A stretch of 63,439 nucleotides of DNA, counting the filler, from Stramenopiles sp. TOSAG23-3 (lineage: Eukaryota), in NCBI GenBank assembly GCA_900128585.1. It is 8 parts of 8 records of this genome, joined end to end, with 100 filler letters (N's around TTAATTAATTAA, not from the genome) between each part and the next. Parts side by side here need not be neighbours in the genome. Positions count along the whole stretch, not along the records: positions 1 to 9,944 come from LT642862.1; positions 10,045 to 19,981 come from LT642863.1; positions 20,082 to 30,017 come from LT642864.1; positions 30,118 to 40,047 come from LT642865.1; positions 40,148 to 50,075 come from LT642866.1; positions 50,176 to 60,100 come from LT642867.1; 2 more parts are not named here. One strand, 5' to 3'. Positions 1,350 to 57,838 of the stretch are shown one piece after another. Position numbers and translations under genes: made by a program. Under the pieces are notes generated by a model. The model was not told the DNA's origin. It was given only the letters and a program-made list of their open reading frames with translations, and ran no database searches. Positions within the stretch are counted from its first letter, which is position 1, and the number at the start of each line of letters is the position of its first letter.

Positions 1350-1724
1350 TTCTTTTATCTTAAATTCTAAAAAACAAAATAATGGCCGATCAATATGAAA
1401 TTTAATTAGACAAAGTTACAATTCCACCACCACCAACAATTCTTCCTTTGCATTTTGTTTGTTGTTTTTTCATCTCTAAAAATAAATTAACAAATCTCTT
1501 CGTTATGAAAATGGAAGAAATATATTCCAACACAAAAGTTACAACAAACAATATATTTTGGTTAAAGTAAAATACATCTACACAGCATTAAACAAAAATA
1601 ACCAACTTTGTTTCAATGTACCAACAACAATTGTTCTTTTGTAATGTTTTTGTTTCTTTTTTTATTTTTCTCTCTTACAACAAAAAATGACAAAATTCCC
1701 ATTTTTTTCTAAAAAAAATAGAAA

Positions 1725-2105
1725 AGACGACCGTCGTTGTTTTTTTTTAAGTAAAAGACTTTGATAGACACCTGTTCAATTAAGTGTTCCGTGTCCTTGG
1801 CGCGAACAAGGGGGACGCCTAACTCCATAACATTAGATCAGTCGACGGCTCCTGTCACGACTTCCGCGCCTAAACAAACGTTTATAAATTGTTTGCCCTC
1901 AAATGACTTGGAAATGAGGTTCCTAGGGACAATTTTTTGTGAAATGGGCGATTTAGACCAAACGCCACCCGAGCAAACACTTACGCATTCGTTGGTGTTG
2001 GTAAAACGAGCCGTACTGTCATATTCTTAGCTATCTCAAAAGATATTTGAGCGTTTAAAATAGTAAACAAAATTCTTCATTCAGAAAGATCTCCTTGCCT
2101 CAAAT
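1725..2105. repeat. Dispersed non-coding element, copy 1 (381 bp)
   Basis: Aligns by hand to 35546-35987 at ~76% identity (92 mismatches in 381 positions) with a single 61-bp indel. Confidence 0.9.
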
Positions 2106-2185
2106 TATATATATTAAATTTTCACCAAAACGACTGAAAAAATAATAGTCGAATTTTAAAATCCCGCGACAACTTGTGATAAGAA

Positions 2186-5100
2186 TCACTTCATCTTCTC
2201 GATCAATATATTGATATCAATGTGAAGTTTTGCGGCCTTCTTTTTCAACTTCTTCACCCGCTTATGCGCCAGCTGGATCGTGGCCGCGGTCGCCGAATCC
2301 GGCAAAGGTTTATTGGTAAGAATTGCCCTTACCGAGTCCTTTAAGGTCGCCCGGGTGAGCGCCGCCTGGGTTTCTGCATCCCGTTGTGCTTCAAGGGCGT
2401 CGGCATGGGCCTTCACTTCATCGATGACACCGTACCTGTATTTGTGCAAATGGGCTCGTTGCTTTTCCCAAAAGGGGAGCCCTAGCGTAATATCGCACAG
2501 GGCCCACTGAAAATAGAACAGAGGGTACAGCAGCTGCGGAAACTTGTTATCCATTCGGCAAAAGTATTTGAAATTCCATTTTCCACTGCCGTCTCTAATG
2601 AACTCTTCTTCTGTAAGGCGAGTGTCGATCAATGTTCTAATTGTCCGTCGGCGCGTCTCCAGCGATTTTTTGTGTAGCTCCCACATCAAAGAGGGTATGA
2701 GCTCGAACGGTACTGCCCCATCCTTCATCGGATCTTGGGAATTAAATACCATGAGCAAGATTTGCTGCCGCCCCATAATGCACCAGATGCCACAGAGTTT
2801 CATAAAATCTGGCCAACGAATTTCTTCCTTCAAGGGAAGCTTCGCTATGTCCCACATTATTTCTACAAAGGCGCCATACTCGCTGGCCCCAAAACGTAGC
2901 CCTAAGTAATGGAACAGCTCTTCGACAGTAATGTACAGATCGGTGTTCACATCAGATTTTGCAAGTCGCCGAAATGCTTGGTACAAACCAATCACAGCCG
3001 AGTCGGGCAACCCGATGAATTCCACAACGTTACGGACAATTTCGTTTGCCTCGGGGTCCCCGGCCTGGTCGGCCAGGTACGAAGGGTCAATATCGGGAGG
3101 AATCCCATTTAGTCCACGAAATTCTATTTTAGCTTTTTCTGTTGCCTCATGCTCGAACTTGATTTCATCGTGAAACTCTTGCATGTATTTGAACCAAAAC
3201 CGTAAACCATGATCCATTCCAAAGTTTGACAAATCGACCGGGTGCATGATGTAACCGCCTTCCATACACGCCCGTTGCTCCATCCTCGTACGCGTCCACC
3301 GGGAAACCATTATGTCATCTATTGGGTTTTCATAGACAGCCTTTCGAATCCATATTGTGAACGGCAGCCGGGTCCAATGGTCTGGTTTTGGTATATCCCT
3401 GCTTTCGTTGGAGAACACTCTTTCAAAACCTGCTTTCCGGTTTTCGGCCCACCTCCCCCCGCCAAACATGTAATTCCCTTCGAACTTAATTTCACACACT
3501 AATCGAGGCTTTGCACTCCTACGAAACCATATGTACACCGGGAGGTCGTCGTTCGTCGAGCAGCGAATGTTTGCTCTTAAATCCAAATTTATGCACTCGT
3601 AATAATTCAATTTTTTTTGCAGGTTTCGCCTCTGGGCCGCGCACATAATTGAATTGTCTTTCTCCCCCAAGATAATCAGGATGTCGTCTATTCCTCTCCT
3701 AATCTTAGTGCTGACTTTACCTTTGGTGTAAATTGCATGTTTTGCTCGATGCTCAGCTATTTCGTCCAACAGCTGCTTTGCTCGTTTCTCTCGCCACCAA
3801 ACTTTTGTCAATGGTATGTGGGACAACATTTTCGTGCCAATCTTTCTTTCCCTGCGCTTTAGTTCTACCATTCCGTACTCAATTAGGACGGGGTCTTTTT
3901 CTCGGGCGCGCTCTTCCTTCTCTAACCGCTCCTTTTCCTTCTCTTCATCCTCGGCAGCAGCAACCAAATCCTTTATTTCTGCCGCTTTGTCTTCCAATTC
4001 TTTGCCTTCGTCTGTGAGACGTTTTGCCTCGTCGTTCATGCTTTCAATCTCCGATTTAACTTGTTTCACACGCTCCAAAATTTTATCGGTTTCATTTTTG
4101 AGCTGTATCACGCTCTGCAGCAAGGCTTGCTTTTCCTCTTCTACAGCCGTGCCCTCTATGTCTTTTAACAATTGGCTTTCTTGCTTTTCTTTACCCTCAG
4201 CGGATTCGAGAAGGTCCGCTTCCTCCGCCTCTTTTTCCTCCCGTGCAGCATGGACGCCCTTTGCCTCATCATACTTGGCATTTGCCAAACTCATGATGTA
4301 CTCAGGGCTATTGTTTTCTTCTTCGCCTTCCTCTTCCTCCGCGTCTCTTTCATCGGCGGCGTTTTCCTCGCCAGTGTCCCCTTCCTCTAATTTCCTAGCC
4401 TCTTCTGCTTCCACGGCTTTCAACCTTTCCATTTCTTCTCTTTCCATCATTGTGGCTTTCTTTTCAAAGTCATGCGCTTCCTCTTTTAGCTGCCTGGCCT
4501 GAGTCAGCAGAGACTCCCTGTCTTCCTCGTCTTCCTTCAAATGGGCTTGCTCTTGAATTTGCAACGCTTCTGCGCGGGCGACCTCGGCCTTTGCCTTGAG
4601 GCTGGCCGGTGTATCTGGGACTTCGGGCAACCGTAGTTCCGTTTCGCCCTTCAGGAGCCTGATCCATTTTCGTTGAAGCCTTTTTTCGATATGGTTGTCG
4701 AGGTACAAAACCTTGTAGGTAGTGCCTTCGTACATGTTGGACGGCGGGTTGATTCGCAATACTTGGGCCCGAAACCATCGTTGTCGCCCGTCCCAATTTC
4801 CCTCAATGATGCTCCCAACAACAATTGGGTTGGCTTCGTAATGTTTTCTCACTTTTCGCTTTTTTAAAGCTGTCGAAATGCTCAATTTATCGGCAAGAAC
4901 GCTGGTCATAGTACCACCTACTTTGGCGTGTTCTGCATCGGCATCTTGTTTGGGTTTCGCTTCGGGGGGTTTTACCAATCTAATTGCTTGCTTGAGACGC
5001 CGGATCACGCGGGCAGCAACACGAGATCTTATTTGTGATTGAATCGCCATCGCAGCAGCTTTTACCCGTATCTCATGCCTCTCCTTTACGATCTTGAAGT

Positions 5101-16622: not shown

Positions 16623-17100
16623 GCTTCCCTCGAGAATACTAACAAATCAACAAATAAAAGGATACTTCACTATTCCTTGTGTCGATCCGAGGAAATGATG
16701 CATATACATACAAATATAACACTTTCTACAACTACCGAAACAACACAAACAAAAAAATCTTTTCTCTGCTTGTTATATTTATTAATGCAAAATGGTTCTC
16801 ATTCATTCTTCTTCTATTTTTTGTTGTGCTGTTTATTTATTCTTCTTCAATTTATTTATTTATAATAATAAATTTTTATTTATTTGTTAAATTTTATTTG
16901 TATTTTTACTAGTACGAGTATTCGTAGTCTTTTCTTCTAGTACAAGCTATAAGCAAGACTAATAGAATCCAACTCTTTAAAAACGACCATTCACGCCTCC
17001 TTCCTATTTATTTAAACAGGTTTAGGTTAAAGTAGGACGATTATTAAAATAGACCTACGTACCTACGTACCACTCATTTTATTAATAAAAAACAAAAAGC

Positions 17101-17350
17101 AAGAAGAAAGAAGAAAGAAGAAGAAGAAGAAGAAGAAGAAGAAAGAAAAGAAGAAGAAGAAGAAGAAGAAGAAGAAGAAGAAGAAGAAGAAGAAAGAAGA
17201 AAGAAGAAGAAGAAGAAGAAGAAGAAGAAGAAAGAAGAAGAAGAAGAAGAAGAAGAAGAATGAAGAAAGAAGAAGAAAGAAGAAAAAGAAGAAAGAAGAA
17301 AAAGAAGAAAGAAGAAGAAAGAAGAAGAAAGAAGAAAGAAGAAGAAGAAA
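17101..17350 (+). repeat. (GAA)n/(GAAA)n polypurine microsatellite
   Basis: Visible directly. Confidence 0.97.
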
Positions 17351-17659
17351 TTAAAAAATAGAAATAAGAAGAAGATATAAATATTTAAATTAGATCTGAT
17401 TATCATACTTATAATATAATGAGACTACAGTAATATTATACCTATATAATTACTATTCTATATAGAGATACTATTGAGACGACTCTTGACTCGTAGGCTA
17501 CATACAGTACGCCTCCTCGTATGTCATTCTTTTTCTTTCCTCTTTCTTATTATTCTTCAATCCAATCAATCAATCCTCCTCCAACAGAGATATATTAGTC
17601 TATATTATTTTAATAAAAAAATAAGAATAAATAGTCTAGTCTAATAAAATGTAATCATC

Positions 17660-17880
17660 AAAGAAGAGAAAGAAGAGAAAGAAGAGAAAGAAGAGAAAGA
17701 AGAGAAAGAAGAGAAAGAAAGAAGAAGAAGAGAAAGAAAGAAGAAGAAGAAGAAGAAGAAGAAGAAAGAAGAAGAAGAAGAAAGAAGAAGAAGAAAGAAG
17801 AAGAAGAAAGAAGAAGAAGAAGAAAGAAAAAAATGTGAAGAAGAAGACAGAAGAAGAAGAAGAAGAAGGGAAAGAAAAAA
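17660..17880 (+). repeat. (AAAGAAGAG)n/(GAA)n polypurine microsatellite
   Basis: Visible directly. Confidence 0.97.
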
Positions 17881-18101
17881 AATTAAAAAATAATAATATA
17901 ATACGAATTATTATTATTGATTATTAATAGACTATTGAAACTGTATTCTATTTTGTACACAGAAATAAAAGAAAACACTCACACTCATCACCCTTCCCTT
18001 TCTCGTATGGTTCGTTTTTTGTTTCTGTTTTGTTCCGGCAGTGGCACTTCGTACACGCAAAGATATCATTTTGTTAGAGAGAAAAATACTCAAGAGTAAC
18101 G

Positions 18102-20081: not shown

Positions 20082-20443
20082 TCTTTCTTCTTCTTCTTCG
20101 TTACCGTAGTTCGTTGTGGTTATTTGGATACAAATTATATATTTTTAATTTACTTTTGAGATGATGATGATGATGTCTATTATAAAATATGATGTTGTGT
20201 TTATTTTGTAATAATATATTATTATTATTTATTTATTTTATATTATTATACGACATCATCATTTTTATACTCTTATTATTATATTATAATTGAAGGAAGG
20301 TAGTCGTAATTGTTAAAGACGGGAAGATGCTCTGGGATGTGTTGATCGGGTACAGACGGACAGAAATAGTTTCCGTTTATTACATTTATCACAGTTTCTC
20401 CTTCCCTCGCCATCTTTCGCTCATCCGTATACCACCCGTTACG

Positions 20444-23347
20444 ATGATTAATGAAGCAACATTTGTAGAGCAAGGCCAGCTTGTCGCTTTCGAGCACAAC
20501 GGGGACGAAGTCCTGGGGATAATCGGTAAACAGCGAAAGGGCAACTTGCTTCAGATCACATTTTCTGCTGCAGTAAACGATGGCTTTGTTCACACAAAAA
20601 ACTCCGTCGAGACGAAGGAGCGTTCTATTTTCGTGCCGTCAGAACGGCTCTTTCCACGCAATGATAATAGGAAGGGCGATAACAGTCGAACGAATCGAAT
20701 TCGGAGAAAACTGGATCAAATTAACCGAAAATGTGAAAAAATGCTGAGCCTTTTAGACTTAGCGACAAGTTCGGGTGGGAAGAAGGCCATACGAGAATGC
20801 TTGAAGCGCGCGCACGAAGTCAGAGGGGCTCTGATCGAAAAGTTGCGATCGCGCGTTCCTTACTTTCAGGGAACAGTCCAATCTGGCGCGCTGCCAAACG
20901 ATCCATGGGTACCGTCTCATCGTTATTGCAATTACTTCTTCAGGTTGCACTTCCACGGTCCCGTCAATGGCGCCACGGACTCTTCGCCCTCTTGCAACAC
21001 GTTTTTCCGGGCAACTGTTACTAACCTTACTGAACATTTTGGGTGGAAGACGGCCAGTTCGATCGAGAACAAAAGCGTACTCGTTCGTGGAAACCAATTG
21101 CTACATGTTACACTGATGGAATCGGACTCCGACCTGCAACGTTTCGTTAATGGGTCGGCGTGGTCACGCACGGCACCCCATGGGTGTGACATTGTCATGT
21201 TTTGCGGTGCATCTGCCGAGAACGTGCAAAGCGAAGTCGAAGGGATAAACGCGTGGTCTGCCGATAAGTTTTCTGGCAGAATTCTATTTCCAATAATTTT
21301 GCTGCCAAAACACAACGACCACGGAGCGTGCAAAGACGGCGTAAGCATTCTCTCGGCTGAAAACTTCCAGAAATGCACTGCCTTTTTAGTTTCATTGTTT
21401 GCCGTCACCAGGAACGAGATAGGTATGTCACATTTCCAGGAAAATGCCGCCCCAGCATCAATAAGCAATATGTCCTCACAGCTGCACCTGGCGGAGAGAC
21501 TAGCCATATTTCGAGGAAGGTCAAGTTTGCTTCCGGAGCCATGGACAATACTACCAGAAGAAATGAGAGTCATGTTCAACAACACCGACAGCGGGTTGGA
21601 GGCATTCTACAACCCTAGCGATAACCGGGTGCAGGCGGTGTGGCCAGACAATATCCCAAGCAGGAGAGCCCGGCAACTCGCGAGCAATGTGGCATGTTCA
21701 GGGGGAAAGGGCGTGCGATCGCGGACACTGCTACCAAATTTGTTGCCTTTGCTGGTCGAAGCAGAATTAAGAGGTTGGGGGCCCTACGATAAGGACGGTA
21801 AACACCAGCATTGGGGTCCCGGAAAGGTGTCGTCGACGTCATGGATCACAGAGATACAGGCTCGACTCATGGACCGACCCGAGCTATTGCGAAACTTTTC
21901 AACGAAAGGCAATCCTATCGACGAGCTTAATCGGTGCAGAAAAATATATGACATTTTGGCGTTGCTTGTTGCCCAATCGTCTGACACTGGAGAAGGCCCA
22001 AGTCGCGAGAAGGATGTCCGACCGAATCTGATTGGCCGGGCACAAATAGAAATGGAAGCCCAAAGTTACAAACTCATTACCAAGGATCGTCAAGTACTAG
22101 AAGAGTGTGTAAAAGGGGCCCCACTGACACCCAAAGATGTGACCCAGTCGCTTGCAACCGGTAATTCAGAGGACGAAGACGGTGGACCTCGCGTACGCCT
22201 TTCGTACCCCGTTGAAAACAGGCAGACTGCCTGGGGAACGGAAGGCGCCAAGATCACGGACGTCCGAGCACTCATCAATGTGGACCAGATGGAACCATCC
22301 GTAATGGAAAATTTGAAAAAGATTGTCAGCATAGACCTACGAGATCAACAGCTGACGTCGTTCCCAATCAAACGAAGTGCGAAGAAAGAGACAAAGGTGG
22401 TTAGGGAAGCGCTGCAACTAGAATGGTACAAGCACCTTCTTTTCTTGGATGTTTCAAAAAATATGCTGGTTACCCTTCATCCTATTAGCTCCATGTCGTT
22501 AGTTTCCCTTAATCTGTCTCATAACAGGCTGAGGCGACTGCCAACGCTACTGCTGCCAAATTTGGAAGTTTTTGATGTTTCTCATAATTTGTTGCGTGGG
22601 CGCGTTGACTTCGCCCTTGGGATAGCAGATGCATTGACAAGTGATAAGACAGTAAAACGCGGAAAAGTGCGCATATTTAAAAACCTGGGGGCATTGGATT
22701 TGTCCAACAACCATTTTTCGTGGGAGTTGGAAGGGGTTCACTTGGCAGCAAACACGCTCAGCCGATCCATGCCTGTTTTACAAAATTTATTTCTCCACTG
22801 CAATCCATTTGTCTCTCGTGTCACCGCATCACGAAAGGCCGTCCTTCGCATACGGTCAATGTTTGTAAACTGTTTGCCACAACTAAAGGCGTTTACTCCC
22901 CCTTGCCAAGATAGCAAGGTAAAAACCTTGTTGCATGTGCAGCATAGCAGATTATCCGGTCGTGTATGGATGAAACCCGGAGCGGAATCGAACATAGATG
23001 ACGTCTCGAAAATTGGACAGGCACGGCAAGGGACATTTTGCGGGATAAGAAACGAGTACATGGGCACAGAATCCATCGCATTTACAAAGAATGGCTCTGT
23101 TCATGTTTGGGGTGATAAAAATTTACCCGAGAACAAACCGTCCCACTCTGAAACAAAAGTTATTGTCGAAACCGAGGATCATGCCGTGGCACTGTATGCG
23201 AAAGAGAGGCTGCTGAAGGAGATCCAGACCATTAGTAATAATTTGGAGAAGAACAATGCGGTGCCAACATCAAATCAACTTGCGACGAGCGTTTCAAAAG
23301 CTCTATACGGCCACGAACGCGGCATCAAATATGCGAAGGGTCCTTAA
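20444..23347 (+). CDS. Leucine-rich-repeat protein with possible WW-like motif; probably continues into the next ORF
   Basis: LFLDVSKNML, LVSLNLSHNRL, LEVFDVSHNLL, LGALDLSNNHF, LQNLFLHCNPF; start ambiguous (ATG 20327 or 20444). Confidence 0.8.
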   Translation: MINEATFVEQGQLVAFEHNGDEVLGIIGKQRKGNLLQITFSAAVNDGFVHTKNSVETKERSIFVPSERLFPRNDNRKGDNSRTNRIRRKLDQINRKCEKMLSLLDLATSSGGKKAIRECLKRAHEVRGALIEKLRSRVPYFQGTVQSGALPNDPWVPSHRYCNYFFRLHFHGPVNGATDSSPSCNTFFRATVTNLTEHFGWKTASSIENKSVLVRGNQLLHVTLMESDSDLQRFVNGSAWSRTAPHGCDIVMFCGASAENVQSEVEGINAWSADKFSGRILFPIILLPKHNDHGACKDGVSILSAENFQKCTAFLVSLFAVTRNEIGMSHFQENAAPASISNMSSQLHLAERLAIFRGRSSLLPEPWTILPEEMRVMFNNTDSGLEAFYNPSDNRVQAVWPDNIPSRRARQLASNVACSGGKGVRSRTLLPNLLPLLVEAELRGWGPYDKDGKHQHWGPGKVSSTSWITEIQARLMDRPELLRNFSTKGNPIDELNRCRKIYDILALLVAQSSDTGEGPSREKDVRPNLIGRAQIEMEAQSYKLITKDRQVLEECVKGAPLTPKDVTQSLATGNSEDEDGGPRVRLSYPVENRQTAWGTEGAKITDVRALINVDQMEPSVMENLKKIVSIDLRDQQLTSFPIKRSAKKETKVVREALQLEWYKHLLFLDVSKNMLVTLHPISSMSLVSLNLSHNRLRRLPTLLLPNLEVFDVSHNLLRGRVDFALGIADALTSDKTVKRGKVRIFKNLGALDLSNNHFSWELEGVHLAANTLSRSMPVLQNLFLHCNPFVSRVTASRKAVLRIRSMFVNCLPQLKAFTPPCQDSKVKTLLHVQHSRLSGRVWMKPGAESNIDDVSKIGQARQGTFCGIRNEYMGTESIAFTKNGSVHVWGDKNLPENKPSHSETKVIVETEDHAVALYAKERLLKEIQTISNNLEKNNAVPTSNQLATSVSKALYGHERGIKYAKGP

Positions 23348-26682: not shown

Positions 26683-26882
26683 AAGAGGTTGTTTGGGATA
26701 CACCGTATGACGGTAGTGCCCCAAGACCCAAGAAAGAAGTGTTAAACCCCCAGTAGCTCCGTAGGGCTGTAAAATACACGATTATAGGTTACCAACCACG
26801 TCGGTAGGTTGGTTTTTGCAAAATGTACTTACTCGTGCGAACTCTTATAAACATTTTTAATTTAAAATGTCTAAATCTAGAT

Positions 26883-26936
26883 TTCAGTTCGCAGTACATT
26901 AATTTTAATTACTTATCAGCCAATTTTCTTGTTTTT
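26883..26936 (-). repeat. 3'-end element copy downstream of DDX46
   Basis: Reverse complement AAAAACAAGAAAATTGGCTGATAAGTAATTAAAATTAATGTACTGCGAACTGAA, closely matching 57458-57515. Confidence 0.9.
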
Positions 26937-26982
26937 ATATGGAATTGAGGTGTTTTAACCCCAAAACCCAAACGCTCTCTTT

Positions 26983-30117: not shown

Positions 30118-30264
30118 TAAAATTGTTTGAGACAGTGGGTATTATTGTTTTGTTGAGCCCTGGCTCTATCCCAAAACGTATTATGATGATCATAAATTTG
30201 ATGTTTATTTCCTGAAAACAAAATTAAAATGGCTGTTATATTGAATTTAAGTGTAAACAGAATG

Positions 30265-30402
30265 GAGTTCAGTTCGCCGTACATCTAATTTTAATTATTT
30301 AAATAACAGCCAATTTTTTGTTTTTAAATTTTCTGTTTTTAACACCCAATTTTTTGTGTTTAATTATCTTAAATAACAGCCAATTTTCTTGTTTTTATCT
30401 TA
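30265..30402 (-). repeat. Two 3'-end element copies downstream of the cytochrome b561 gene
   Basis: TAAATAACAGCCAATTTT at 30300 and 30370; the first extends to GAGTTCAGTTCGCCGTACAT. Confidence 0.9.
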
Positions 30403-31806: not shown

Positions 31807-33159
31807 ATGGAAATTCAGCCAAAAGTACATGGTGGAATTTCTGCGTCGGAATTTCCGTTGTCAGGAGGAAGCAGTTTGCTGTCAGCCGGCGGGAGTGCGT
31901 TGTTTGCGAATGCTGCGAATCAAAGTGGCCTGGGAGACGGCAGCAGTTCAGTTCCTACGGACGCTGATAATGATAATTCTAGCAAACCAAGCACATCGCT
32001 ATTGTTCATAGCACCAAAAGAAAAAAAGCTTTCGTTTGAAGATTATTGGGCAAGTAGGGGAATGTCATCCCCCGATCGTAACGCCAATATTCCATTCGAT
32101 GATACTTTAACGGAAATGGACACTCCGCGCAACTGGAAAGTAAGGCCGACGTCACCGTCTGCAAAACGAGTTGCTAAAATTGCGACAGACCGCAGACACC
32201 AATTTGCGAAAAGTTCAGACAGCACCATAACGGCCCATGCGCCGGAGTACAAACCGGTCGCGCCGTCTCGTTTCCTTGACAAGGTGGAATTTTTGATGCA
32301 ATTAGAGGCAAAGAGGAAAAAGTTTAAAGACGAGACGATGGACAGCGAGTTTTGGAGAAGCATGATGCTACCAGATGTTGATTTTCGAGAGTTATTAGAT
32401 CCTCGAAGCAAAGACGAAATAGAACAAGAACTTCGAGTAGCGGAAGAGCAGGCAAAGTTTGAAAATAGAGTAATGGCCCGGTGGGAGCTCTTGAACGATC
32501 GCACCCTGTACAACACAAAGACTGAAGAGAATTTTGCTGCCGGCCGCTACGGAGAGGCTCTAAACTATAGCAGACTGTACAGATCGAAGTGCGAAGCCGA
32601 GAAGATGCAGATGGCGCTGGAGCGGGAGGAAGAAATTTTGCGATTGATGGGGGCTAACTTTCACATTGGCGCAGGGACAAAAGGAGGGAGCCGAAAGTAC
32701 AAGACTCCCAATGAGTTGCACATGGACTTGTACCAGTTAAAAGTGAGAAATAGTAAAGAAACTGTAGCAAGTTTGAATGCCCGCCCGACGGGGAAGAAAC
32801 TCCAGAGGGTTGGGGAGAAGAAAAAGAGTACGACAAATAAGCTGAAAAAGAGGAACCCTTTCTCCGAAATTAACTTTAAGCGTCCGAACAGTGTCCTCCG
32901 CCTGAACAAAAGTAAGAGCGAGACCAAAAAACTGCTGGACGAGGTTAAGAAGAGCATGCTAAAAGTTAAACGGCAGGGCATTAAATTGCCAAGCACTACG
33001 CAGAAAAAGAAAACTTTGCGTGCTATTAATTTCAATTCTTGTCGGACAAGCGTCGGAGCGAAAGGCCCGTCGAAGAAAGGCCAGGGGAAGAAGAAGAGAG
33101 GTGCTCGTAAGGTAACTTTACGAAAAAAACGACCAGCGCGCAAGCTCGACACTAGATAA
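31807..33159 (+). CDS. Hypothetical protein with Lys-rich C-terminus
   Basis: 450-aa ATG ORF with coding-like composition; no recognisable domain. Confidence 0.8.
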   Translation: MEIQPKVHGGISASEFPLSGGSSLLSAGGSALFANAANQSGLGDGSSSVPTDADNDNSSKPSTSLLFIAPKEKKLSFEDYWASRGMSSPDRNANIPFDDTLTEMDTPRNWKVRPTSPSAKRVAKIATDRRHQFAKSSDSTITAHAPEYKPVAPSRFLDKVEFLMQLEAKRKKFKDETMDSEFWRSMMLPDVDFRELLDPRSKDEIEQELRVAEEQAKFENRVMARWELLNDRTLYNTKTEENFAAGRYGEALNYSRLYRSKCEAEKMQMALEREEEILRLMGANFHIGAGTKGGSRKYKTPNELHMDLYQLKVRNSKETVASLNARPTGKKLQRVGEKKKSTTNKLKKRNPFSEINFKRPNSVLRLNKSKSETKKLLDEVKKSMLKVKRQGIKLPSTTQKKKTLRAINFNSCRTSVGAKGPSKKGQGKKKRGARKVTLRKKRPARKLDTR

Positions 33160-33610
33160 AAACAAAAAACTGGCTGTTATTTAATTACGTAATGAAAAAC
33201 GAAAAATTGGCTGCTATTTAAAGAAAGTTATTGGGAAAAAATCTTAGATTTCGAAGAATCAAAGACTGATAGTAATTGAGCGTCTTGAAGCATACTAATT
33301 GAGAGTCTTAAAGCATACTATCATATCATATATAAATTATAATATCATTCATTAGTTAGTTTTTATATATTATAATATTTTATTTTTTTTAAAAATAAAA
33401 CAAGAAAATTGGCTGTTATTTTTTAAGTCATTAAAATTTATCTAAAACAAGAAAATTAAAATTTATCTTCTTCATATAACTGAGAAGTTATCTCTGCTAG
33501 TAAGTAATTACTTTGTAAAATTTATCTTCCTCGTGTACCGCAAAAACGAATCTGTTCCTTTTGTCCATTACAGGTTTATGTTCCTTCATGTACTGCGAAC
33601 TTATCTCTCT
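33154..33610 (+). repeat. Cluster of 3'-end element copies and their internal sub-repeats
   Basis: TGGCTG(T/C)TATTT cores at ~33171, ~33208 and ~33410; AAATTTATCTTC modules at ~33459 and ~33518; TTCCTTCATGTACTGCGAACT at 33581. Confidence 0.85.
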
Positions 33611-33749
33611 ACTCTTGTGGTTTTACTAATCAATATCATGCCCTTGTCACTTAGTCTTGACTATCATGCTCAGATGTACTCAATACGTGCAACTAGATAA
33701 TTCTTTAAAAAATTACAGAGTGTGGCTCATTTTTTTAAACCCGAATTTA

Positions 33750-39744: not shown

Positions 39745-39777
39745 AAACGACACGAGGAACCCTTTACAAGTAAAAAT

Positions 39778-39818
39778 AAACACAAGAAAATTGGCTGTTA
39801 TTTAAGTATAAGATAAAA
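39778..39818 (+). repeat. 3'-end element copy downstream of the GH55-like gene
   Basis: AAACACAAGAAAATTGGCTGTTATTTAAGTA, 34 bp after the stop. Confidence 0.9.
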
Positions 39819-40047
39819 TATGTTTATATGAGAGGAAGCTGAAGTTTTAATTACTCTAAATATCATGGAAATCGCTGACCGGCCTAGCCGTTTAGGAGCC
39901 CCAGAAGGTACACTTACATCTGTATGCGTATACGACCACGAAACGATCAAACTCAATACCGATCATTCTTTCATTGAGCAGTACCACAGACAACGAGCCC
40001 CTTTAAAACATTTATGCCGCTGTGTACTTTTAAGACCAATCAATTGG

Positions 40048-41582: not shown

Positions 41583-41861
41583 ATTTGTGTTTTTAGCTTT
41601 GTAAAATACGCACAGACACAGGGGGAAAGGGGAAGAAAAGGGAGTGTCGCCAAAATAATAAAAAATTGGCCTGGGTTATTTAAAGTATATAAAAATAAAA
41701 TTTAAAACTACGAAACACATGTATTTTTCGCTTACTTCTAGAAACACACGCACACACGTAATACACACACGTAAATTTATTTTGACTGAGATTCATTTAC
41801 CGTGCACACTTTTCCAAGCATTTAATTTAGGGCCCATCTCTGGTTTACCCCACACTGCGAA

Positions 41862-42908: not shown

Positions 42909-43010
42909 GGTTGTCACCCTACTATGAAATGCCCAATTGGTAAATGTACCAAACGAGGGCACAACGAAGTACTTGCGAAATGAAATGGGTATTATTGATT
43001 AGTAAAATCT

Positions 43011-43088
43011 GAGGAGCAGAGATAACTTCGCAGTATATGAAGACGATAAATTTTAATTAATTTAAATAACAGACAACTTTTCGTTTTT
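43011..43088 (-). repeat. 3'-end element copy lying upstream of a gene (positional exception)
   Basis: Reverse complement AAAAACGAAAAGTTGTCTGTTATTTAAATTAATTAAAATTTATCGTCTTCATATACTGCGAAGTTATCTCTGCT; its tail matches 33458-33498. Confidence 0.8.
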
Positions 43089-43772
43089 AAAATGAAATGC
43101 TTCAATGCCGACGATGTCTTGAGACTAAAGACACGCTGAATTTTTCATATATTAATGAAGAATGCGTAATCCTCCTTCTCTCACACAGCAGTGATGATCA
43201 TCCCTTGTTGAGAACTAATTTTACATACTATTTTTTAGTTAATAGTATAGTATTACTACTATATAAAATAATAATAATATTGTGTGCTAGTATGCTGCTA
43301 TGTGTCAAAATATTTTTTATTTTATCGTTACAAAAAAAGCGAAGAAAGATCTCTCCTGAGTGAGTTCCCAGTCCTCCCCTCCGTCCTCCACCCCCGCCGA
43401 ATATTTTCATAAAATGTATTGTAAAAAAAAACATTGACACAGCACCCTTTCATCATCATCCTCAATCCCATCATCATCCTCAATAATCATACATCATCCA
43501 TATTATCATATCATCATCATCTAACTATCATCATCCATCAGGGGATTTTTTTTTATATATATAAATAATACCGTTGTTTAAAAAGAAATTTTGGAAAGAG
43601 AAGAAGATATACTACTGCAGTACAATCCTCCATGTTTTAACAAAGAAAAAGGGGAAACGATTTGTGCAAACATTCCGTATCTAACTATATTATACCCGCT
43701 TTGGGTTTGTGTGTACAAAAATATAAGCGAAACGACGGTGGGGTGACTTCTGGAAAGTTGCCATTAGTTACC

Positions 43773-46184: not shown

Positions 46185-46490
46185 GAAAAACAAAATAATG
46201 GCTGTTGTCCTTTAATGGGCAAAAGGATCAGATTCGTTTTCACGGTACATGAGGAAGATAAATTTTAATTGCTGGAATAACAGAGCCTCTTTTTTGTTTT
46301 AATTTTTCTACTCTCAGTATAAATAAAATGTACTTACTTAATAAATTTATGTTATCACATTAAAAAGTAAGATAACATAATTGTTTCCACCATGCTATCA
46401 TATCATATTTGTCAAATGGATTTAAACTTTAATTTTTTTAACATAAAGACCAAAATAAAATAAAAGAAATAACAGCCATTATTTTTTAGG
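46185..46490. repeat. Opposed 3'-end element copies between two convergent genes
   Basis: Plus-strand AAAAACAAAATAATGGCTGTT at 46186; minus-strand long copy 46208-46300 matching 33517-33574; minus-strand core AATAACAGCCATT at 46468. Confidence 0.8.
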
Positions 46491-46500
46491 GGAAAACATT

Positions 46501-50075: not shown

Positions 50076-50175
50076 NNNNNNNNNNNNNNNNNNNNNNNNN
50101 NNNNNNNNNNNNNNNNNNNTTAATTAATTAANNNNNNNNNNNNNNNNNNNNNNNNNNNNNNNNNNNNNNNNNNNN
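50076..50175. other. Artificial contig linker
   Basis: 44N-TTAATTAATTAA-44N. Confidence 0.98.
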
Positions 50176-50176
50176 C

Positions 50177-53100: not shown

Positions 53101-56100
53101 TCTGACAGATTACGACGGCAGCACTTTCCGTGTGGAAGACAGCAGTACATCTTCTCAATCGAAGTTTGGAACGAAGATGTCTAACATATTACGGAACAAC
53201 AATGATTTCTACAACAGGACAATTAGATTAGTTTTGAAGGCAAAACATTCAGACCACGGCTCGAGTTGGCAGGATAGGCTGTGGGGCTACCTTGTGGAAG
53301 CTCCAGCGTGGGAAAAAGTTGCAGAAGTGATTGAAGCGAAGCGAACGTGGGAGAATTTTTACGACGAGATCCGGGAGTACCCTTACAGAGCGTACTTTGT
53401 GATGGCAATGCATGCTAGACTGATTCCTGCATATGATGGCGATTTCGGCCAGGCCGTCTCCTGGCGACGACAATTTGTGGCTAGGGGAGGGTTTTTGTTT
53501 TTGCTTGATTTTTTTATGTCTCACACAGGGCACGAGACTGGCAATATGCGTCGTTGCGGTTTGTCAACGGCCTTGAAGTGCGTAAAGTTCCTCGTCCTTG
53601 GGGCTGTTCAGGCCACGGGCACTGGAGGATCGTCAACGCCTTCGAAGGCATCGTCCAATGCCAGCAAGAGCTTCATTAGCCCGCCACGGATTGGAAAAAT
53701 GTTTGAAGAAGATGCCATAACCCCTCTGAGAACGTTTTCTGCGGAGACCGCGAACAAAATTCGAGACACTCTGGAAGAACAAGACTTCTTTCTGAAGCTC
53801 GCCAGTATCTCGATAAACCTCCATCAGCGGGAGTCCCCCCAAAATCGCAAAAAATCGGGAGGAATGGTTGTCCTTAACGCTCTCCATGCAATGGAAGAGT
53901 TAATTCGTGGAATGCCAGAGATGGCACACAGTTTTTCAGAGTTGGCCATAAAACATAAAATTATCGAATTGGCCATTCACAGCAGCTCAGAATTGCACAG
54001 AAAGGCCGCGTCTGCTGTCATCAAATCGTTGTGGCAAAGTTTTCTCGTGCTTGAAAGAGAGCAGGAAGGCACCGCGCCAATTTTAGGACACACGCTGAGC
54101 TGTGCAATCCAGGAAAACATATCATCGCTAAACGGCAGTTCAAACGGGAGGTATTTGGAGTTATCGCAAGCCGTCGAGTTTCACATTAGGCAGTGCATCT
54201 CTGGAAACAGCCAGGACGAAAAGCGTAGAAACTGGAATTTGGCGCTGGAAACTCTGCTGTACACACTGCCTAATGATAGCAGTGATAGAGATGGCACAGT
54301 GTCCGAGTCTCGGTGTTTTGATCCTGCCAACAGCATGCGAAAAGAGAACATTTTGAGTGGTATTTTGTCTAATTTGGTGGCTCTAACGTCCACTTCCGAC
54401 TCAAACGTCGCAAACGTGGGCTTGCTGCGATTCATTGTCCAGCGGTGCTTATTTTACGTTCCTAAAGAGCGCAAGGATACCGGCCGGGCGCTCTGTCGCA
54501 CTGGGAAAACAAGAGCCTTGGCGTTCCATTTACTAAATTCCAACAGCAGAGACAGTGGGGTGCGAGAAGACGTCTTTGTGAATATTTATAGCTTGTATGA
54601 GTCTTTGCAGGAACAAGAATCTTTTCTTTCGTTACCTGCATCGATGCGGTGGAAATACGACCCGTCCGACGCGGAATTAAAACCCCACGGCTTCTGCGGG
54701 CTGACAAACCAGGGGGCCACGTGCTACATGAACTCCTTGCTCCAACAGTTTTTTATGTGTGACAAAATTCGCGAAGGGGTTTTGGCAGCCGAATTTGACG
54801 AAGACGTTCAGCCAGACAATGTCACGTCGATTTTGAAGGAGTTGAAACGCGCATTCACATTTTTGCAAAACAGTGAATCAAAAAGTTTCAACACGACAGC
54901 TTTTGTGGAAAGCTGTCGGCCGTTGGGCCTGACGAACGACATTTTATCGCAAAACGACACCGCTGAATTTTGCGACAAGTTGGTCGATTGCTTGGAAGTT
55001 GTCCTCAAGGGTACTTGGAAAGTTTTTTCCGGCCTTGTCATGCACGAAACAGACTTTGTTGGAGTACAATACCGCTCCGAAAGGGAGCAACCCTTCATAT
55101 TTTTGCCGTTGCCGATCGTGGGGACCCCTGTTGCGACCCTTGAAAAGTCACTACAAGAATTTGTTAAGGCAGAAAAGATGGACGGAGAGAATCAAGTGGA
55201 GTGCGAAGAAGCGGGGAACAGAAAGTTCGATGCTTTTCGAAGGGACTGGGTGTCCCAGTTGCCAGAGCTTTTGATAGTGCATTTGAAGCGGTGGCAACTG
55301 GACTATCAGACATTCGCCATGAAAAAAATAAATAGCCGATGTGAATTTCCCATGGAGTTGGACATGATGCCGTACGTCAAGCAGCGGGGGTCCAGCTCTG
55401 CCCCTCGCGACGATGAGGCAAGCTACAAGTACGCATTGTCGGGCATTTTGGTCCACCGTGGCCCAGCAGGGGGCGGGCATTATTTCTCAATAATTAAAGA
55501 CAGGGCTTCTGGCAAGTGGTACAAGTTCAACGACGAGACGGTGGTTGAGTTCCAGGCGGGCAGAATCGACGCTGCTTCATTTGGACGAAGCAACGGGGAC
55601 CAGAGTGCTTACATGCTTTTTTACGACAGATTGAACCGAAGTTGGCCAGGCCAGACGGGCAGCGAGTCGCGCATAATCAACAAAGGCGTTGTCCCTGACA
55701 GTTGCACCTCGTTCCAGGCTCGACTGGACACCGAAATGTCCAATTACAACGCTTCGTTTATCCAGCGTCAGTTTTTGTACGACCCGGAACTCGCGAAATT
55801 TCTATACAACGACATGAACGCTTTTGATTATGATATTGACGACAAGAAAATGGCCCTGGCCTTCTTCATGGATGTTTTGGCACGTTCGTACCACACCACT
55901 ATACTAGCACAGTTTGTAGAATGTTTGGTAAGGCACTTGCGCTCCGACGAGCAGTTGTCATCCTGGGTGTTGAAACAGTTCTGTAATACCAGCGCCCAGG
56001 ACTGGGGAGGCAGCTGGCTGGACGGTTTGGTCGAGTGTTCCGAGAAATCAAAGAGGCACGCAACAGGGCGAATCATACGGACTGCTGTATCTACGTGCGC

Positions 56101-57454
56101 GAAGGCCGCGGGCAAGTTGGAGCAAGGCTCCGACATGTATGGCCATGTCAATTTATTTTGCGGTATCTTTATGAACATGATGTGGAAGGTTGCAAAGAAG
56201 TGGCGCCAGAGCACCGAGTACTTTGATTGCCTTCGACAAATCGCCAAACAAAAGCTGTGCGCGCAGCTGTTTGTTGAGACCGGAGCAATTCCCCGGTTGG
56301 TTCACTACTTTCTTGGCAGTGAAAGCACGAACACCGATTTCCCTCCTCTGTTGTCTTGGGAATCGGCATCGAGCTCCTGGGGATACGCGACCGAGCCGCC
56401 CGATCGCACGCTTCCCTTAAAGGTTCTGGTGTCGCTCTCTGAATACGCCCAAGGGCAAATGTTAGGTGACGTTAACGATACTGACATGTTGAGATGTGGC
56501 GATGCGTTTTACAAGTACGCCGTGGATTTGTTTGACGGGGGTACGGCGCCGTTTCGCCTTATCGAACGCATAGCATCGACGGAGGGCATCGTGCTGGAAG
56601 ATTTGAAGCAGAAACTGTTCATTGGCAAGCTTGCCTGCGAGGGCGAATCCAACAGTATCACATTCGGGTCCAAAGAGATGTACACAGGGTCCATGTATGC
56701 CATCGCCACAATCTTTGTGATGAACCACGAGGTGCCCATTGATGGCATTGTGACCTCCGCACGTTTGTGCATCACAAACCACAGAGAGCGACCATCGACA
56801 AAAGCAAGCTGCGACTACGAAGTGTGTGTTTACGAAAAGGCAAATCGGGAAAGGGACCCTATTTGTTTTGACGACGGCACGAAGCTGACAGTGAAGTACA
56901 TCGGAAAGGAAGAGGTTCGGACGTTTGAGCCCGGGCACAGGGTGTCGGCCATGAAAATTGATGCTACGACGGGTGATATGGGAGATTTCGAAAACGGAAT
57001 GATCAAAGAGGTCGACCCCGAGTCAGGAACGTACACGGTTTATTTCGACGACACCACGGTTGCCCCTAATGTCATCGGTGATTTTATCAGTGCATCGGCT
57101 GCCCCGTTCCCGGAAGATCGACAGTGTTTCACTATTGTGGCTCGGCGCAGCATAGACGTGGACGTTCGAAAGGCTGAAGTCCAGGAATTTTTTGACCTGG
57201 ACATGCCGGTGAAAAAAGGCCAGTACATTGGCATTGTTAATCACATCGACAAGCTATGGCTCTCTTGGGAGCAGCAGTGGAAGTCAAGCGACGAATTTCA
57301 CTTCAAGAACTGGTACACAACGAAGTATACTGCTACGAAAAAAAGTAATTCTCGACAGGAAGGGAGCACCGTGATGAACTTGAGGATGTCCACGTCAAGG
57401 CCTCAGTACTCGGTGAAAATTGTAAGTTTGGCTGAGAGGAAGAAAGTCACGTAA
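50177..57454 (+). CDS. Large ubiquitin-specific protease, USP9/24/34-like; 5'-truncated
   Basis: Cys box GLTNQGATCYMNSLLQQ, QNDTAEF, His box LSGILVHRG...GGHYFS, WYKFNDETV, SAYMLFY; helical N-terminus and UBL-like segment; frame open to the contig edge. Confidence 0.95.
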   Translation, partial: AASVREEIAENLEQKLKEVSSKPPAAVGDICDKVMQRFLYGEKNVVYHDCWTAMMWVTGTTLFPSDERRPLATATKLFMKDCLVPIVKHLLVQDVNIGSEEAYQVCTAIKCFVYLTAVEIEQGETRCLEAMAAILNPGKSLYKHIVMYSDKERDPFASVQGRQQPKLARSEYWHSINAFLSIAARRNVYGSIQTLFEQNVHWIGVKATADAFSTIYFSRHVLEGDYVAKVCECAIQALEKVDPDELMRQTNGEKEHLATLIKYLARLTNGNESTMLRWMDGVVLKLFRSSNLQQRIFAVEQMVWWSQQISTGTAAEQNGWCDHTLYVRWLRHNNVLEQLFESDRMRVEIFNRSTKLLLYLAHRLSAGDASALATDDLAIIWKSCLQRDHRIVKSVSLLLIALIKELPVETSLPLFGFWAESTNDDVRELVTLMSSFSTNDDNLLVLSRNRVCSVTSQILWGLIMGTKNREAVSASGLASLIKTLCGILNSSETSGNDEILKQRTFCYRKCIANVLHRDKVHISLDILKETVIENSYISTASSRVYVSRLNEINELCVDINKSGPGLFDRREDGHSGKVHVSLLGVILTAIKWSKLDSRVNKKNTLKQLQFLDAVACRSDVKLGKRELYDIWMSLDSQIGRQALFSWLGETKWSKYPELGAFEEEAREYFFIHLLCEKSDFSKMSSESYQCFCEHFVRLNDDHVVTHFDNIEEVSKRNLLGKKYLWNIMLLAPEKVSSKAMKFFLQLFHALKKDKDTERLTIMEEFLRFVNEDTDGSDPAERTRLHRCFRLLQQMVKEDRDSSDGGGVMRSHSETGRGEPLRITVSAAPKNSDGGLPLKAEATKLSATASSGATLDNLDQKGNIEFTIETHTNAVLWEVRKNISLLLAQKSAQLQINSGIPSVIDDEDYKRLKMSVRGNVLNGRNVLLGWTSLEDGDSIDVEMVLFDQEKAGKSPIGRSNLRVLSSLKSRSTSPIDLTDYDGSTFRVEDSSTSSQSKFGTKMSNILRNNNDFYNRTIRLVLKAKHSDHGSSWQDRLWGYLVEAPAWEKVAEVIEAKRTWENFYDEIREYPYRAYFVMAMHARLIPAYDGDFGQAVSWRRQFVARGGFLFLLDFFMSHTGHETGNMRRCGLSTALKCVKFLVLGAVQATGTGGSSTPSKASSNASKSFISPPRIGKMFEEDAITPLRTFSAETANKIRDTLEEQDFFLKLASISINLHQRESPQNRKKSGGMVVLNALHAMEELIRGMPEMAHSFSELAIKHKIIELAIHSSSELHRKAASAVIKSLWQSFLVLEREQEGTAPILGHTLSCAIQENISSLNGSSNGRYLELSQAVEFHIRQCISGNSQDEKRRNWNLALETLLYTLPNDSSDRDGTVSESRCFDPANSMRKENILSGILSNLVALTSTSDSNVANVGLLRFIVQRCLFYVPKERKDTGRALCRTGKTRALAFHLLNSNSRDSGVREDVFVNIYSLYESLQEQESFLSLPASMRWKYDPSDAELKPHGFCGLTNQGATCYMNSLLQQFFMCDKIREGVLAAEFDEDVQPDNVTSILKELKRAFTFLQNSESKSFNTTAFVESCRPLGLTNDILSQNDTAEFCDKLVDCLEVVLKGTWKVFSGLVMHETDFVGVQYRSEREQPFIFLPLPIVGTPVATLEKSLQEFVKAEKMDGENQVECEEAGNRKFDAFRRDWVSQLPELLIVHLKRWQLDYQTFAMKKINSRCEFPMELDMMPYVKQRGSSSAPRDDEASYKYALSGILVHRGPAGGGHYFSIIKDRASGKWYKFNDETVVEFQAGRIDAASFGRSNGDQSAYMLFYDRLNRSWPGQTGSESRIINKGVVPDSCTSFQARLDTEMSNYNASFIQRQFLYDPELAKFLYNDMNAFDYDIDDKKMALAFFMDVLARSYHTTILAQFVECLVRHLRSDEQLSSWVLKQFCNTSAQDWGGSWLDGLVECSEKSKRHATGRIIRTAVSTCAKAAGKLEQGSDMYGHVNLFCGIFMNMMWKVAKKWRQSTEYFDCLRQIAKQKLCAQLFVETGAIPRLVHYFLGSESTNTDFPPLLSWESASSSWGYATEPPDRTLPLKVLVSLSEYAQGQMLGDVNDTDMLRCGDAFYKYAVDLFDGGTAPFRLIERIASTEGIVLEDLKQKLFIGKLACEGESNSITFGSKEMYTGSMYAIATIFVMNHEVPIDGIVTSARLCITNHRERPSTKASCDYEVCVYEKANRERDPICFDDGTKLTVKYIGKEEVRTFEPGHRVSAMKIDATTGDMGDFENGMIKEVDPESGTYTVYFDDTTVAPNVIGDFISASAAPFPEDRQCFTIVARRSIDVDVRKAEVQEFFDLDMPVKKGQYIGIVNHIDKLWLSWEQQWKSSDEFHFKNWYTTKYTATKKSNSRQEGSTVMNLRMSTSRPQYSVKIVSLAERKKVT

Positions 57455-57550
57455 GATAAAACACAAGAAAATTGGCTGTTATTTAAGTAATTAAAATTAA
57501 TGTACTGCGAACTGAACTCTGACATTCGAGGTTTACATTCCTTCATGTAA
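57452..57550 (+). repeat. 3'-end element copy overlapping the USP stop codon
   Basis: TAAGATAAAACACAAGAAAATTGGCTGTTATTTAAGTAATTAAAATTAATGTACTGCGAACTGAACTCT. Confidence 0.92.
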
Positions 57551-57726
57551 GATATTGACTTTTTAAGATAATCGTAAAGATCTAAATAAACATCAGCACA
57601 TATTAATATTTTTTGTTTTTCATAAAACATTAAATCGCTTTCTTATACGCATTTTGATTTTTTTAAATAAAAGAGTGATAGACAACCAACAACGAAACAA
57701 AATTACAGAACCAGTTTAGGTTTAGG

Positions 57727-57838
57727 GTAAGAGGAATGCTAAATTTAATTACTTAATAAATGAAGCTAAATTTAATTACTTAAATAACAGCCAATTTTCT
57801 TGTTTTTAAAATAAATAACAGCCAATTTTCTTGTTTTT
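57727..57838 (-). repeat. Tandem 3'-end element copies downstream of the kinesin gene
   Basis: TAAATAACAGCCAATTTTCTTGTTTTTA twice (57781, 57812) and GCTAAATTTAATTACTTAA twice. Confidence 0.92.

Follow-up and report, generated by a model that had tools for sequence, protein, structure and literature searches.

The window analysed here, a 63,439-nt stretch of the Stramenopiles sp. TOSAG23-3 genome (GCA_900128585.1), is made of eight contigs joined by N-linkers, and copies of one motif lie behind the stop codons of ten of its genes. Gene structure and marine sequencing runs hint that the host may be a MAST-type stramenopile. The element pieces of the window, with the strand given for the parent element and two target-site duplications (TSDs) included, are as follows.

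1369..1390, minus strand: weak and doubtful trace of a terminus, 20 bp past the stop at 1349; recognised by eye only, with no BLAST match
26866..26937, plus strand: truncated subfamily B copy in a convergent gap, ~48 bp behind the DEAD-box helicase stop
30150..30245, minus strand: pieces of opposite orientation, one associated with family D (30150-30211) and one a degenerate terminus (30215-30245)
30252..30397, plus strand: two termini with subfamily B body (30252-30328, 30359-30397), downstream of the gene at 30457-31095
33157..33226, minus strand: two short termini, starting on the TAA of the gene that ends at 33159
33297..33321, plus strand: near-terminal piece of family D, with a second degenerate piece directly to its left
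33397..33690, minus strand: terminus with subfamily C bodies (33397-33478, 33516-33690), against the strand rule first proposed; the ankyrin gene stop is 60 bp off
39777..39808, minus strand: stub of 32 bp, 33 bp past the stop at 39744
39986..40022, plus strand: fragment of the element ORF tail, opposite in orientation to the 39777 stub
41652..41688, minus strand: degenerate terminus in a convergent gap, read by eye
42978..43091, plus strand: subfamily C copy in a divergent gap, on the promoter side of a minus-strand gene whose first ATG (42908) is ~70 bp away; a counter-example
46186..46206, minus strand: degenerate terminus, 80 bp past the stop of the EF-hand gene, read by eye
46209..46305, plus strand: subfamily C copy of opposite orientation, abutting the 46186..46206 stub
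46467..46488, plus strand: degenerate terminus, 13 bp behind the FKBP stop, read by eye
57451..57458, plus strand: left TSD GTAAGATA, host DNA that includes the USP TAA stop
57459..57546, minus strand: 5'-truncated subfamily B 3'UTR and terminus, 88 bp; the motif reads plus and begins 5 bp behind the USP stop
57547..57554, plus strand: right TSD GTAAGATA, adjoining the 5' truncation point
57662..57839, plus strand: subfamily A cluster (body 57662-57756, termini 57762-57810 and 57812-57839), ~80 bp behind the kinesin stop

The preliminary description had taken these copies for a strand-specific conserved element parked just downstream of stop codons. Every copy that it listed was recovered within a few tens of bases, those at 1370, 41660, 46186 and 46468 in degenerate form, and the ten genes indeed carry a copy within ~80 bp of the stop that reads in the gene's sense. 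Neither the strand rule nor the gene-3' placement proved strict, as opposite copies occur at 30215-30245, 33397-33690 (ankyrin) and 46209-46305 (EF-hand), and the copy at 42978-43091, previously missed, lies in a divergent, promoter-side gap. At the USP gene, the TAA placed inside the element at 57452 belongs to the host: TAAGATA is host sequence, and an insert of 88 bp is flanked by GTAAGATA on both sides, at 57451-57458 and at 57547-57554.

Across the 28.4-Mb assembly, a 28-mer of the motif occurred in 437 exact copies against none for its reversed control, which bears out recurrence beyond chance, and a relaxed detector gave 29 matches in 263 kb, with none for the reversed and complemented controls. 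Longer copies showed where the motif comes from: its reverse complement forms the 3' terminus of non-LTR retrotransposons of one family, which encode a restriction-like endonuclease (RLE). In these copies the RLE ORF is followed by a 3'UTR of ~130-160 bp and then by the motif, and one 1.8-kb array (L111) shows the order RLE ORF, acidic tail, 3'UTR and reverse complement of the motif. For 36 ORF-end matches followed by 250 bp or more of sequence, the next terminus stood in element sense in 22, in the sense in which the motif had first been read in 5, and was absent in 9. As read from DNA copies, the RNA of the element terminates in ...AAAUAACAGCCAAUUUUCUUGUUUU and carries a U-tract instead of poly(A). 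The extensions described earlier as optional modules of a signal are the 3'UTRs of three subfamilies (A, B and C) that have the terminal ~40 nt in common, and other copies, assigned to a second family D, end in GAGAGTCTTAAAACATACTATATAATTTGTTTTTT. Motif copies have a fixed 3' end and variable 5' truncation, and LTRs and TIRs are absent from them; most are 5'-truncated stubs, with a body of 29-445 bp in 88 of 89 anchored loci (the remaining locus scored 0). We consider it probable (roughly 0.85) that the motif is the first-strand cDNA start of an RLE non-LTR retrotransposon, CRE/R2-like, whose copies have gathered behind genes, mostly in convergent gaps. The motif-bearing family is undescribed in the literature searched, the kind of element is already known, and the unusual traits are the U-tract end, the very short stubs and the several subfamilies with one terminus.

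The sequences P0001-P0003 and L111 carry, at their C-terminal side, C-x8-H-x3-C-x8-PHN, QADG, WDVHF and E-x2-K-x2-KY, corresponding to a CCHC knuckle and PD..D..E..K-type motifs, and full-length-type relatives likewise have the CCHC and D-V..E..K-Y motifs; a Pfam search of the RLE part of the ORF gave no match. The family's own reverse transcriptase (RT) is represented only by thumb-region fragments of uncertain family assignment, and the assembly yielded no full-length motif-bearing element and no stretch in which an intact RT adjoins the motif, so the connection to an RT is made through a sister family. This sister family encodes an RT (RVT_1 match at E 8e-7, just under the cut-off), and in P0155 that RT is joined to a homologous RLE region (35% identity to P0002, 527 aa, E 1e-74). 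A profile of RT relatives matched R2 at 1e-36 to 1e-19 and L1 ORF2 at 1e-17 among solved structures; direct phmmer of the RT against solved structures gave no match, and homologue searches with the RT returned no named CRE reference protein. The sister-family RT motifs are, we assume, CRE-like, and Ulp1-like motifs are also present, with the protease-like part C-terminal. The family RT was reached only by walking outward from the RLE; the eight matches of a Pfam RVT_1 genome search were all Gypsy-like or DIRS/Ngaro-like by translation, and none has the motif as its own end.

Other element classes were examined and rejected. A SINE does not fit copies that have no fixed 5' end and bodies running on into the RLE ORF. 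A Penelope-like element was dropped on the grounds that the ORF is RLE-type and that no Rfam hammerhead reached the gathering score in the 3' parts scanned; a reverse-strand peptide ending FNYLNNSQFSCF had invited the same reading, but the real ORF stops upstream and is RLE-type. MITEs and other DNA transposons were set aside as TSD lengths vary and as the facing pairs in convergent gaps, which do face as originally described, consist of independent copies, each from a different subfamily, and do not represent terminal inverted repeats. The earlier idea of a mobile element at gene 3' ends stands in kind, by its TSDs, one fixed and one ragged end and the link to the RLE ORF, but SINE identity and fixed orientation do not: what the copies represent is an autonomous-type LINE cut down to its 3' end, read from the opposite strand and only weakly biased in orientation.

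The other idea put forward, a lineage-wide 3'-processing or termination signal, was not supported. Of the gaps in an unselected 200 kb, 14 of the 22 convergent and 26 of the 28 tandem ones held no detectable copy, the terminus was exact in only 6 of 22 body-anchored copies, and the terminus formed no stable fold (four folds, z +0.4 to +1.2 against shuffles, with no Rfam match). High copy number and closeness to stops would suit a host-born signal, or a SINE or MITE, but continuity with the RLE ORF, ragged 5' ends and TSDs leave these origins hardly credible. Stubs of the retrotransposon may instead have been domesticated as poly(A), termination or mRNA-stability elements, comparable to SIDER2 in Leishmania. 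Copies often lie within 100 bp of stops, ATTAAA occurs on the strand on which the motif was first read, and a contig from an RNA run enters the terminus 34 nt past the USP stop, a weak pointer as such contigs show neither ends nor strand and may derive from DNA. However, most gene ends carry no copy and both orientations occur, which, together with the inexact terminus and the unremarkable folds, makes domestication improbable.

The TSD check that had been suggested was carried out and found duplications of 8-17 bp around a minority of copies. TSD-like repeats of at least 12 bp flanked 17 of 164 copies, compared with a mean of 3.3 and a maximum of 7 in 20 permutations; on inspection by eye, 12 of these lie directly against the truncation point and the other 5 are the element's own repeats, and TSDs of at least 8 bp were absent in 110 of the 164. 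Some TSDs are made of element sequence, indicating that newer copies inserted into older ones. On the strand of the motif, the junction consensus is W-T-A-A then AAAC, and the flanks of the 164 copies have only W-T-A-A in common. The density of this target word was about equal in the three gap classes (17-22 per kb, elements unmasked), against 4.5 per kb in CDS. Stop-codon TAA as a favoured target was discarded, as TAA stood at 11 of 21 near-stop ends versus 157 of 339 others, with no clear excess. An Rfam scan of the window and five loci returned no family, and no multicopy-gene target was encountered there.

Judging from these junctions, the protein would nick host DNA at a short A/T word, and the A-rich 3' end at the nick would prime reverse transcription on the U-tract of the RNA. 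Synthesis would usually halt after 30-150 nt, the lengths seen in the copies, and a staggered second nick would give the 8-17 bp TSD seen for a minority; the terminal ~40 nt common to A, B and C are presumably the part recognised by the protein. Placement most likely combines purging from coding and promoter DNA, nesting in older copies and a mild intrinsic lean (~1.7:1) toward gene 3' ends and sense-strand priming.

Placement was scored at the 89 anchored loci, of which 64 were callable: 57 lay in convergent gaps, 7 in tandem gaps and none in divergent gaps or genes, with 25 unclassed. In the unselected 200 kb, copies occupied 8 of 22 convergent, 2 of 28 tandem and 0 of 22 divergent gaps, and 0 of 19 element matches lay inside genes. 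This absence from genes and divergent gaps is what random insertion at WTAA words would leave if copies survived only in convergent gaps, which have no promoter, in a large marine population. An unrelated control repeat leans in the same direction (convergent 6 and divergent 1 of 11 callable, with 7 of 16 loci examined uncallable), and strict orientation is lacking; we give selection as the sole cause somewhat less than an even chance. Selection alone, however, leaves unexplained that the convergent share of the motif family exceeds that of the control repeat (Fisher p = 0.012), and it also leaves a strand lean: of the element pieces that come first within 100 bp of 360 gene ends, 87 read in the gene's sense and 52 in the opposite sense (p = 0.004; ~1.7:1), compared with a ratio of 139:115 for the target word where 3' ends are free of elements. 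The strand rule of the preliminary description shrinks to a bias of only ~1.7:1, since within a convergent gap each strand reads as sense for one of the two genes. A fixed antisense orientation, suggested by 27 of 30 upstream ORFs in sense, was dropped after contexts had been classed, and a conservation symmetry test was uninformative, with n = 1 in the reverse arm.

Both the excess over the control repeat and the strand lean would be accounted for if the same element targeted its sites actively, its RNP being tethered to, or opening DNA at, convergent Pol II termination zones. Among 74 loci with full flanks (56 convergent, 7 tandem, 11 unclassed), the convergent share of 56/63 is above the 69% expected under equal gene ends (p = 3e-4, per-gene-end null; the placement nulls come from 200 kb with 77 genes on five long contigs and a home-made gene caller), and family D occupies the same gaps. 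Yet the control repeat shuns promoter gaps too, so selection alone pushes in the same direction as targeting. Moreover, with repeats masked, copies are spread over the full width of the convergent gap, the sense stop being the closer one for only 33 of 57, counts are inflated by nesting, and one window copy sits in a divergent gap. Tested copies also look fixed, and therefore selection has acted: in a comparison of one convergent gap with contigs of four runs, short-sided joints from other copies excluded, the terminal part of the 57459..57546 copy was carried in contigs of X1, X4 and X8, the site was filled where covered, no contig joined cleanly across the gap, and no empty site was seen. 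A share of active targeting in placement is possible, somewhat against the odds, and so is a route through, for example, termination factors, R-loops or positive supercoils as a safe-harbour strategy in a gene-dense genome.

As an RLE retrotransposon, the motif family resembles the CRE group (CRE1/2, SLACS, Cnl1, MoTeR, FoTeR) in having an RT, shown here for the sister family, followed by a CCHC knuckle and a PD-(D/E)xK-type endonuclease, in 5'-truncated copies outnumbering full ones, and in nested arrays from insertion into its own copies, which the available portion of PMC9942834 reports for Cnl1. In contrast to that group, it lacks a multicopy target of the kind that spliced-leader genes or telomere repeats provide, is dispersed over thousands of gaps between single-copy genes, and shows a U-tract 3' end, extreme truncation, RHN replaced by PHN/PHK, R/KPD by QAD/QPD, and a long insert between RT thumb and knuckle. 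Its RLE-motif pattern diverges from the SLACS/CRE pattern in PMC12857005, which also covers the REL motif. R2 (R2Bm, R2Tg) offers the best structural relatives of the RT profile and a like TPRT mechanism. NeSL and Utopia-1_TSP have Ulp1-like motifs as does the sister family, with the protease part N-terminal there and C-terminal here, and the R2, R4, NeSL, HERO and Utopia clades are mostly site-specific for rRNA, snRNA or microsatellites (both from excerpts of PMC4640811), whereas the sequence target here is about four bases. Leishmania SIDER1/2 are likewise short retroposon relics, numerous in a compact protist genome and confined almost entirely to the DNA downstream of stop codons (PMC2323293). 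SIDERs derive from ingi/L1Tc, have a 5' 79-bp signature in common, an A-rich 3' end and a demonstrated mRNA-decay role; copies of the motif family have their 3' end in common and an RLE-type parent, and any host function is putative.

Position-based targeting is known from Dictyostelium TRE and Tf1, and the sites sought by the elements described so far that target by position are, to our knowledge, promoters, Pol III genes or heterochromatin. Mu, P, Ds, piggyBac, T1 and Hermes are also placed by gene geography and not by long sequence; they favour starts, starts and ends alike, or divergent gaps, and shun convergent gaps, as far as the available text of PMC7337890 and PMC9942834 goes. The motif family shows the mirror pattern, seen for old, selected copies only. 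More speculatively, and rather unlikely at present, it may represent an early-branching RLE LINE lineage without long sequence targets that homes on convergent Pol II termination zones, priming on the A-rich sense strand just behind stops by means of a U-tailed RNA, in a position-defined safe harbour common to several co-resident families of an intron-poor marine protist, as a mirror of promoter-seeking transposons. RLE proteins are now in use as genome writers, and a convergent-terminator-seeking element, if true, would provide a new safe-harbour rule and a handle on RLE site choice. In itself the motif has an unexceptional identity, which disposes of a misleading hint at a long eukaryotic 3'-end signal, and the family should be masked in motif searches of the TOSAG23-3 genome.

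Drawn as eight contigs with N-linkers from a 28.4-Mb, 7088-contig eukaryotic assembly, the window carries host genes that are long ORFs in the standard code and intronless for the most part, and the sequencing runs containing its DNA are marine. Searching the assembly for an exact 28-mer of the conserved core gave 437 matches vs 0 for the reversed control, and a relaxed detector gave 19 hits across 200 kb of unselected contigs and another 10 in the window (controls, 0), which extrapolates to an estimated ~2,700 copies genome-wide (long contigs only). The window copies in the preliminary description were confirmed, four of them being degenerate, and ten genes indeed have a copy in reader-sense (the strand of that description; element-sense is its reverse complement) within ~80 bp of the stop. 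Elsewhere in the window, plus-strand ORFs 20294-23347 and 23217-23993 overlap in different frames (20294-23993), possibly as a single gene with an intron or frameshift, and long degenerate AAG-type purine tracts occupy a divergent gap at 17066-17392 and 17640-17892.

We conclude that the motif is the truncated 3' end of a high-copy LINE family with a restriction-like endonuclease (RLE), concentrated between convergent genes. The core is a constant end; beyond it, copies continue into one of three alternative sequences, each of ragged length. Walking into the longest continuations led to contig L111, in which an ORF carrying endonuclease motifs (QADG, WDVHF, E-x2-K-x2-KY, then MSLSGAFS and FQRNIS..VAKS) leads into an acidic tail of low complexity, after which come a 3'UTR and the motif's reverse complement. 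Among 36 ORF-end matches with ≥250 bp downstream (two matches at some loci), the next terminus was in element-sense for 22 and in reader-sense for 5, with none present for the remaining 9, indicating that the ORF-motif link is general and not confined to L111; the distance from ORF end to terminus was typically 130-160 bp. Searching the assembly with the RLE ORF gave 55 matches, and longer metagenomic relatives of this ORF contain a CCHC knuckle. The subfamily A 3'UTR also holds telomere-like CCCTAA(A) words (window 57690-57720), probably by coincidence.

Target-site duplications, raised as a check in the preliminary description, are a hallmark of target-primed reverse transcription. Flank repeats of ≥12 bp were found at 17 of 164 distinct copies vs a mean of 3.3 (maximum 7) over 20 permutations; 110 of the 164 lack any flank repeat of ≥8 bp. 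Visual inspection placed 12 of the 17 flush with the point of truncation and showed the other 5 to be the element's own repeats. In roughly half of the clean cases the duplicated stretch is element sequence, so older copies frequently serve as the landing site for new ones. At the 3' junction the consensus is just W-T-A-A (T in 71% at -3, A in 65% at -2, A in 84% at -1; 164 copies). Window copy 57459-57546 (88 bp) has GTAAGATA on either side, so that the TAA stop of the adjoining USP gene, earlier placed inside the element at 57452, lies in the flanking duplicate and is host target DNA. Body length was 29-445 bp at 88 of 89 loci, mostly <130. The element ends in a T-tract in DNA copies, and an A-rich nicked strand would prime on the U-tract of the element RNA. 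Many termini (L031-L060) show frequent 2-6 nt micro-duplications (e.g. doubled TTATTT, GGC, AAT) as well as stubs of 25-40 nt lying back to back; reverse transcription that stutters or re-initiates as it begins could account for these, as could slippage at a later time.

Placement was scored at 89 loci, namely the first 100 of the 437 28-mer matches listed, minus 11 (contig ends, duplicates, sequence not retrieved). Both flanking genes were callable at 64 (25 unclassed), and among these listed matches 57 were convergent, 4 tandem-sense, 3 tandem-antisense, and none divergent or inside genes. A null in which any gene end may receive a copy, run under identical windowing and gene calling, predicts 69% convergent placement at callable loci; among the matches listed, 56/63 were observed (p 3e-4). 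With unclassed loci kept, the figures were 56/74 observed vs 55% expected (p 4e-4). In unselected DNA, copies occupied 8/22 convergent, 2/28 tandem and 0/22 divergent gaps. One window copy, 42978-43091, sits in a divergent gap. The target word is equally common in all three gap classes; sequence alone is therefore insufficient to explain convergent placement.

Orientation, described earlier as fixed, proved to be a lean. Counting the first element piece at each of 360 gene ends, reader-sense:opposite ratios were 32:16 within 30 bp (p 0.03), 57:34 within 60 bp (p 0.02), 87:52 within 100 bp (p 0.004) and 103:76 within 150 bp (p 0.05), compared with a ratio of 139:115 shown by the target word at gene ends lacking the element. 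After repeat masking, 33 of 57 convergent copies lay nearer the sense stop, and opposite-orientation pieces adjoin window stops at 30215, 33397-33690 and 46209-46305. Most of the apparent strand rule follows from the geometry of convergent pairs, in which each strand is sense to one of the two genes.

An unrelated dispersed repeat (length ~450-700 bp, 40 or more copies scored, 71-90% identity, conserved end TTCCGCGCCAAAGATACT) served as control:
Window 1714-2105, extending further on both sides: control repeat
Window 35535-35987, extending further on both sides: control repeat
L253-L268: genome loci of the control repeat

Nine of 16 loci examined were callable (convergent 5, tandem 4, divergent 0); adding the two copies in the window brought these counts to 6, 4 and 1 of 11, so that the control repeat lies mostly behind gene ends. 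Pure selection is a plausible source of the convergent placement, if short of an even chance: the control repeat likewise shuns promoter gaps, and the tested copies look fixed and selection-filtered, since the 57459 terminus is present in contigs of three out of four runs, and contigs of all four yielded no clean empty allele there (the best of the DNA runs could itself be the source sample). Polymorphism is very low, at about two SNPs per 4.5 kb over window 55500-60000 across runs X1, X4, X5 and X8 (2015-2023, four studies). Real targeting of convergent gaps, which we rate slightly lower, draws on the LINE stubs having a higher convergent share than the control repeat (Fisher p 0.012). Our working reading is a mixture of selection and targeting, and we think it rather unlikely that unselected insertions would bear out active targeting of convergent terminators. 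In published work, T1 and Hermes avoid convergent gaps and Cnl1 forms nested, 5'-truncated arrays (PMC9942834), integration types are associated with starts and with ends (PMC7337890), RLE clades are mostly target-specific (PMC4640811), and the REL motif pattern and truncated copies have been described (PMC12857005). Main texts of the open-access literature, Repbase aside, yielded no description of this family and no LINE with a convergent-gap preference, absences that weigh little.

A 3'-processing or termination signal, proposed earlier, is unsupported, because most gene ends in unselected contigs have no copy, the terminus is exact in just 6 of 22 body-anchored copies, four folds of it were no more stable than shuffles, Rfam gave no match, and an RNA-run contig entering the terminus by 34 nt behind the USP stop leaves the poly(A) site unreadable. 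Single copies may have been co-opted later for host function; SIDERs are located in 3'UTRs (PMC2323293).

Walking upstream revealed, on contig L170, a reverse transcriptase (RT; RVT_1 E 8e-7, 29.4 bits vs cut-off 29.6) that is a sister family's, not the motif family's own. Relative protein P0155 joins this RT to an RLE region with 35% identity over 527 aa to P0002 of the motif family. The single RT sequence matched no solved structure, and a profile of 12 RT relatives hit R2 structures (E 1e-36 to 1e-19) above L1 ORF2 (1e-17); the RT motifs look CRE-like. Sister RLE families bear cysteine-protease-like motifs C-terminal to the endonuclease, and family D has another terminus:
L143:1-1584 (-): sister family, protease-like motifs
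L145:6677-7984 (+): sister family, protease-like motifs
L149:1155-2021 (+): sister family, protease-like motifs
Window 33280-33321; L149:2043; L033; L061: family D

One such motif is Ulp1-like (Pfam C48 weak, E 0.093) and another, by eye, OTU-like; NeSL and Utopia-1_TSP have Ulp1 at the N terminus (PMC4640811), whereas the motifs here are C-terminal. Family D differs from the motif in terminus sequence, has the identical TTTGTTTTTT tract and occupies the same convergent gaps, and the genome hosts no fewer than three to four RLE families side by side. Unrelated to the motif, Gypsy-like (L104, L105, L106) and DIRS/Ngaro-like (L107, L108, L109, L101, L110) retrotransposons, of the LTR and tyrosine-recombinase classes, have long open frames, with gag-pol intact-looking in some.
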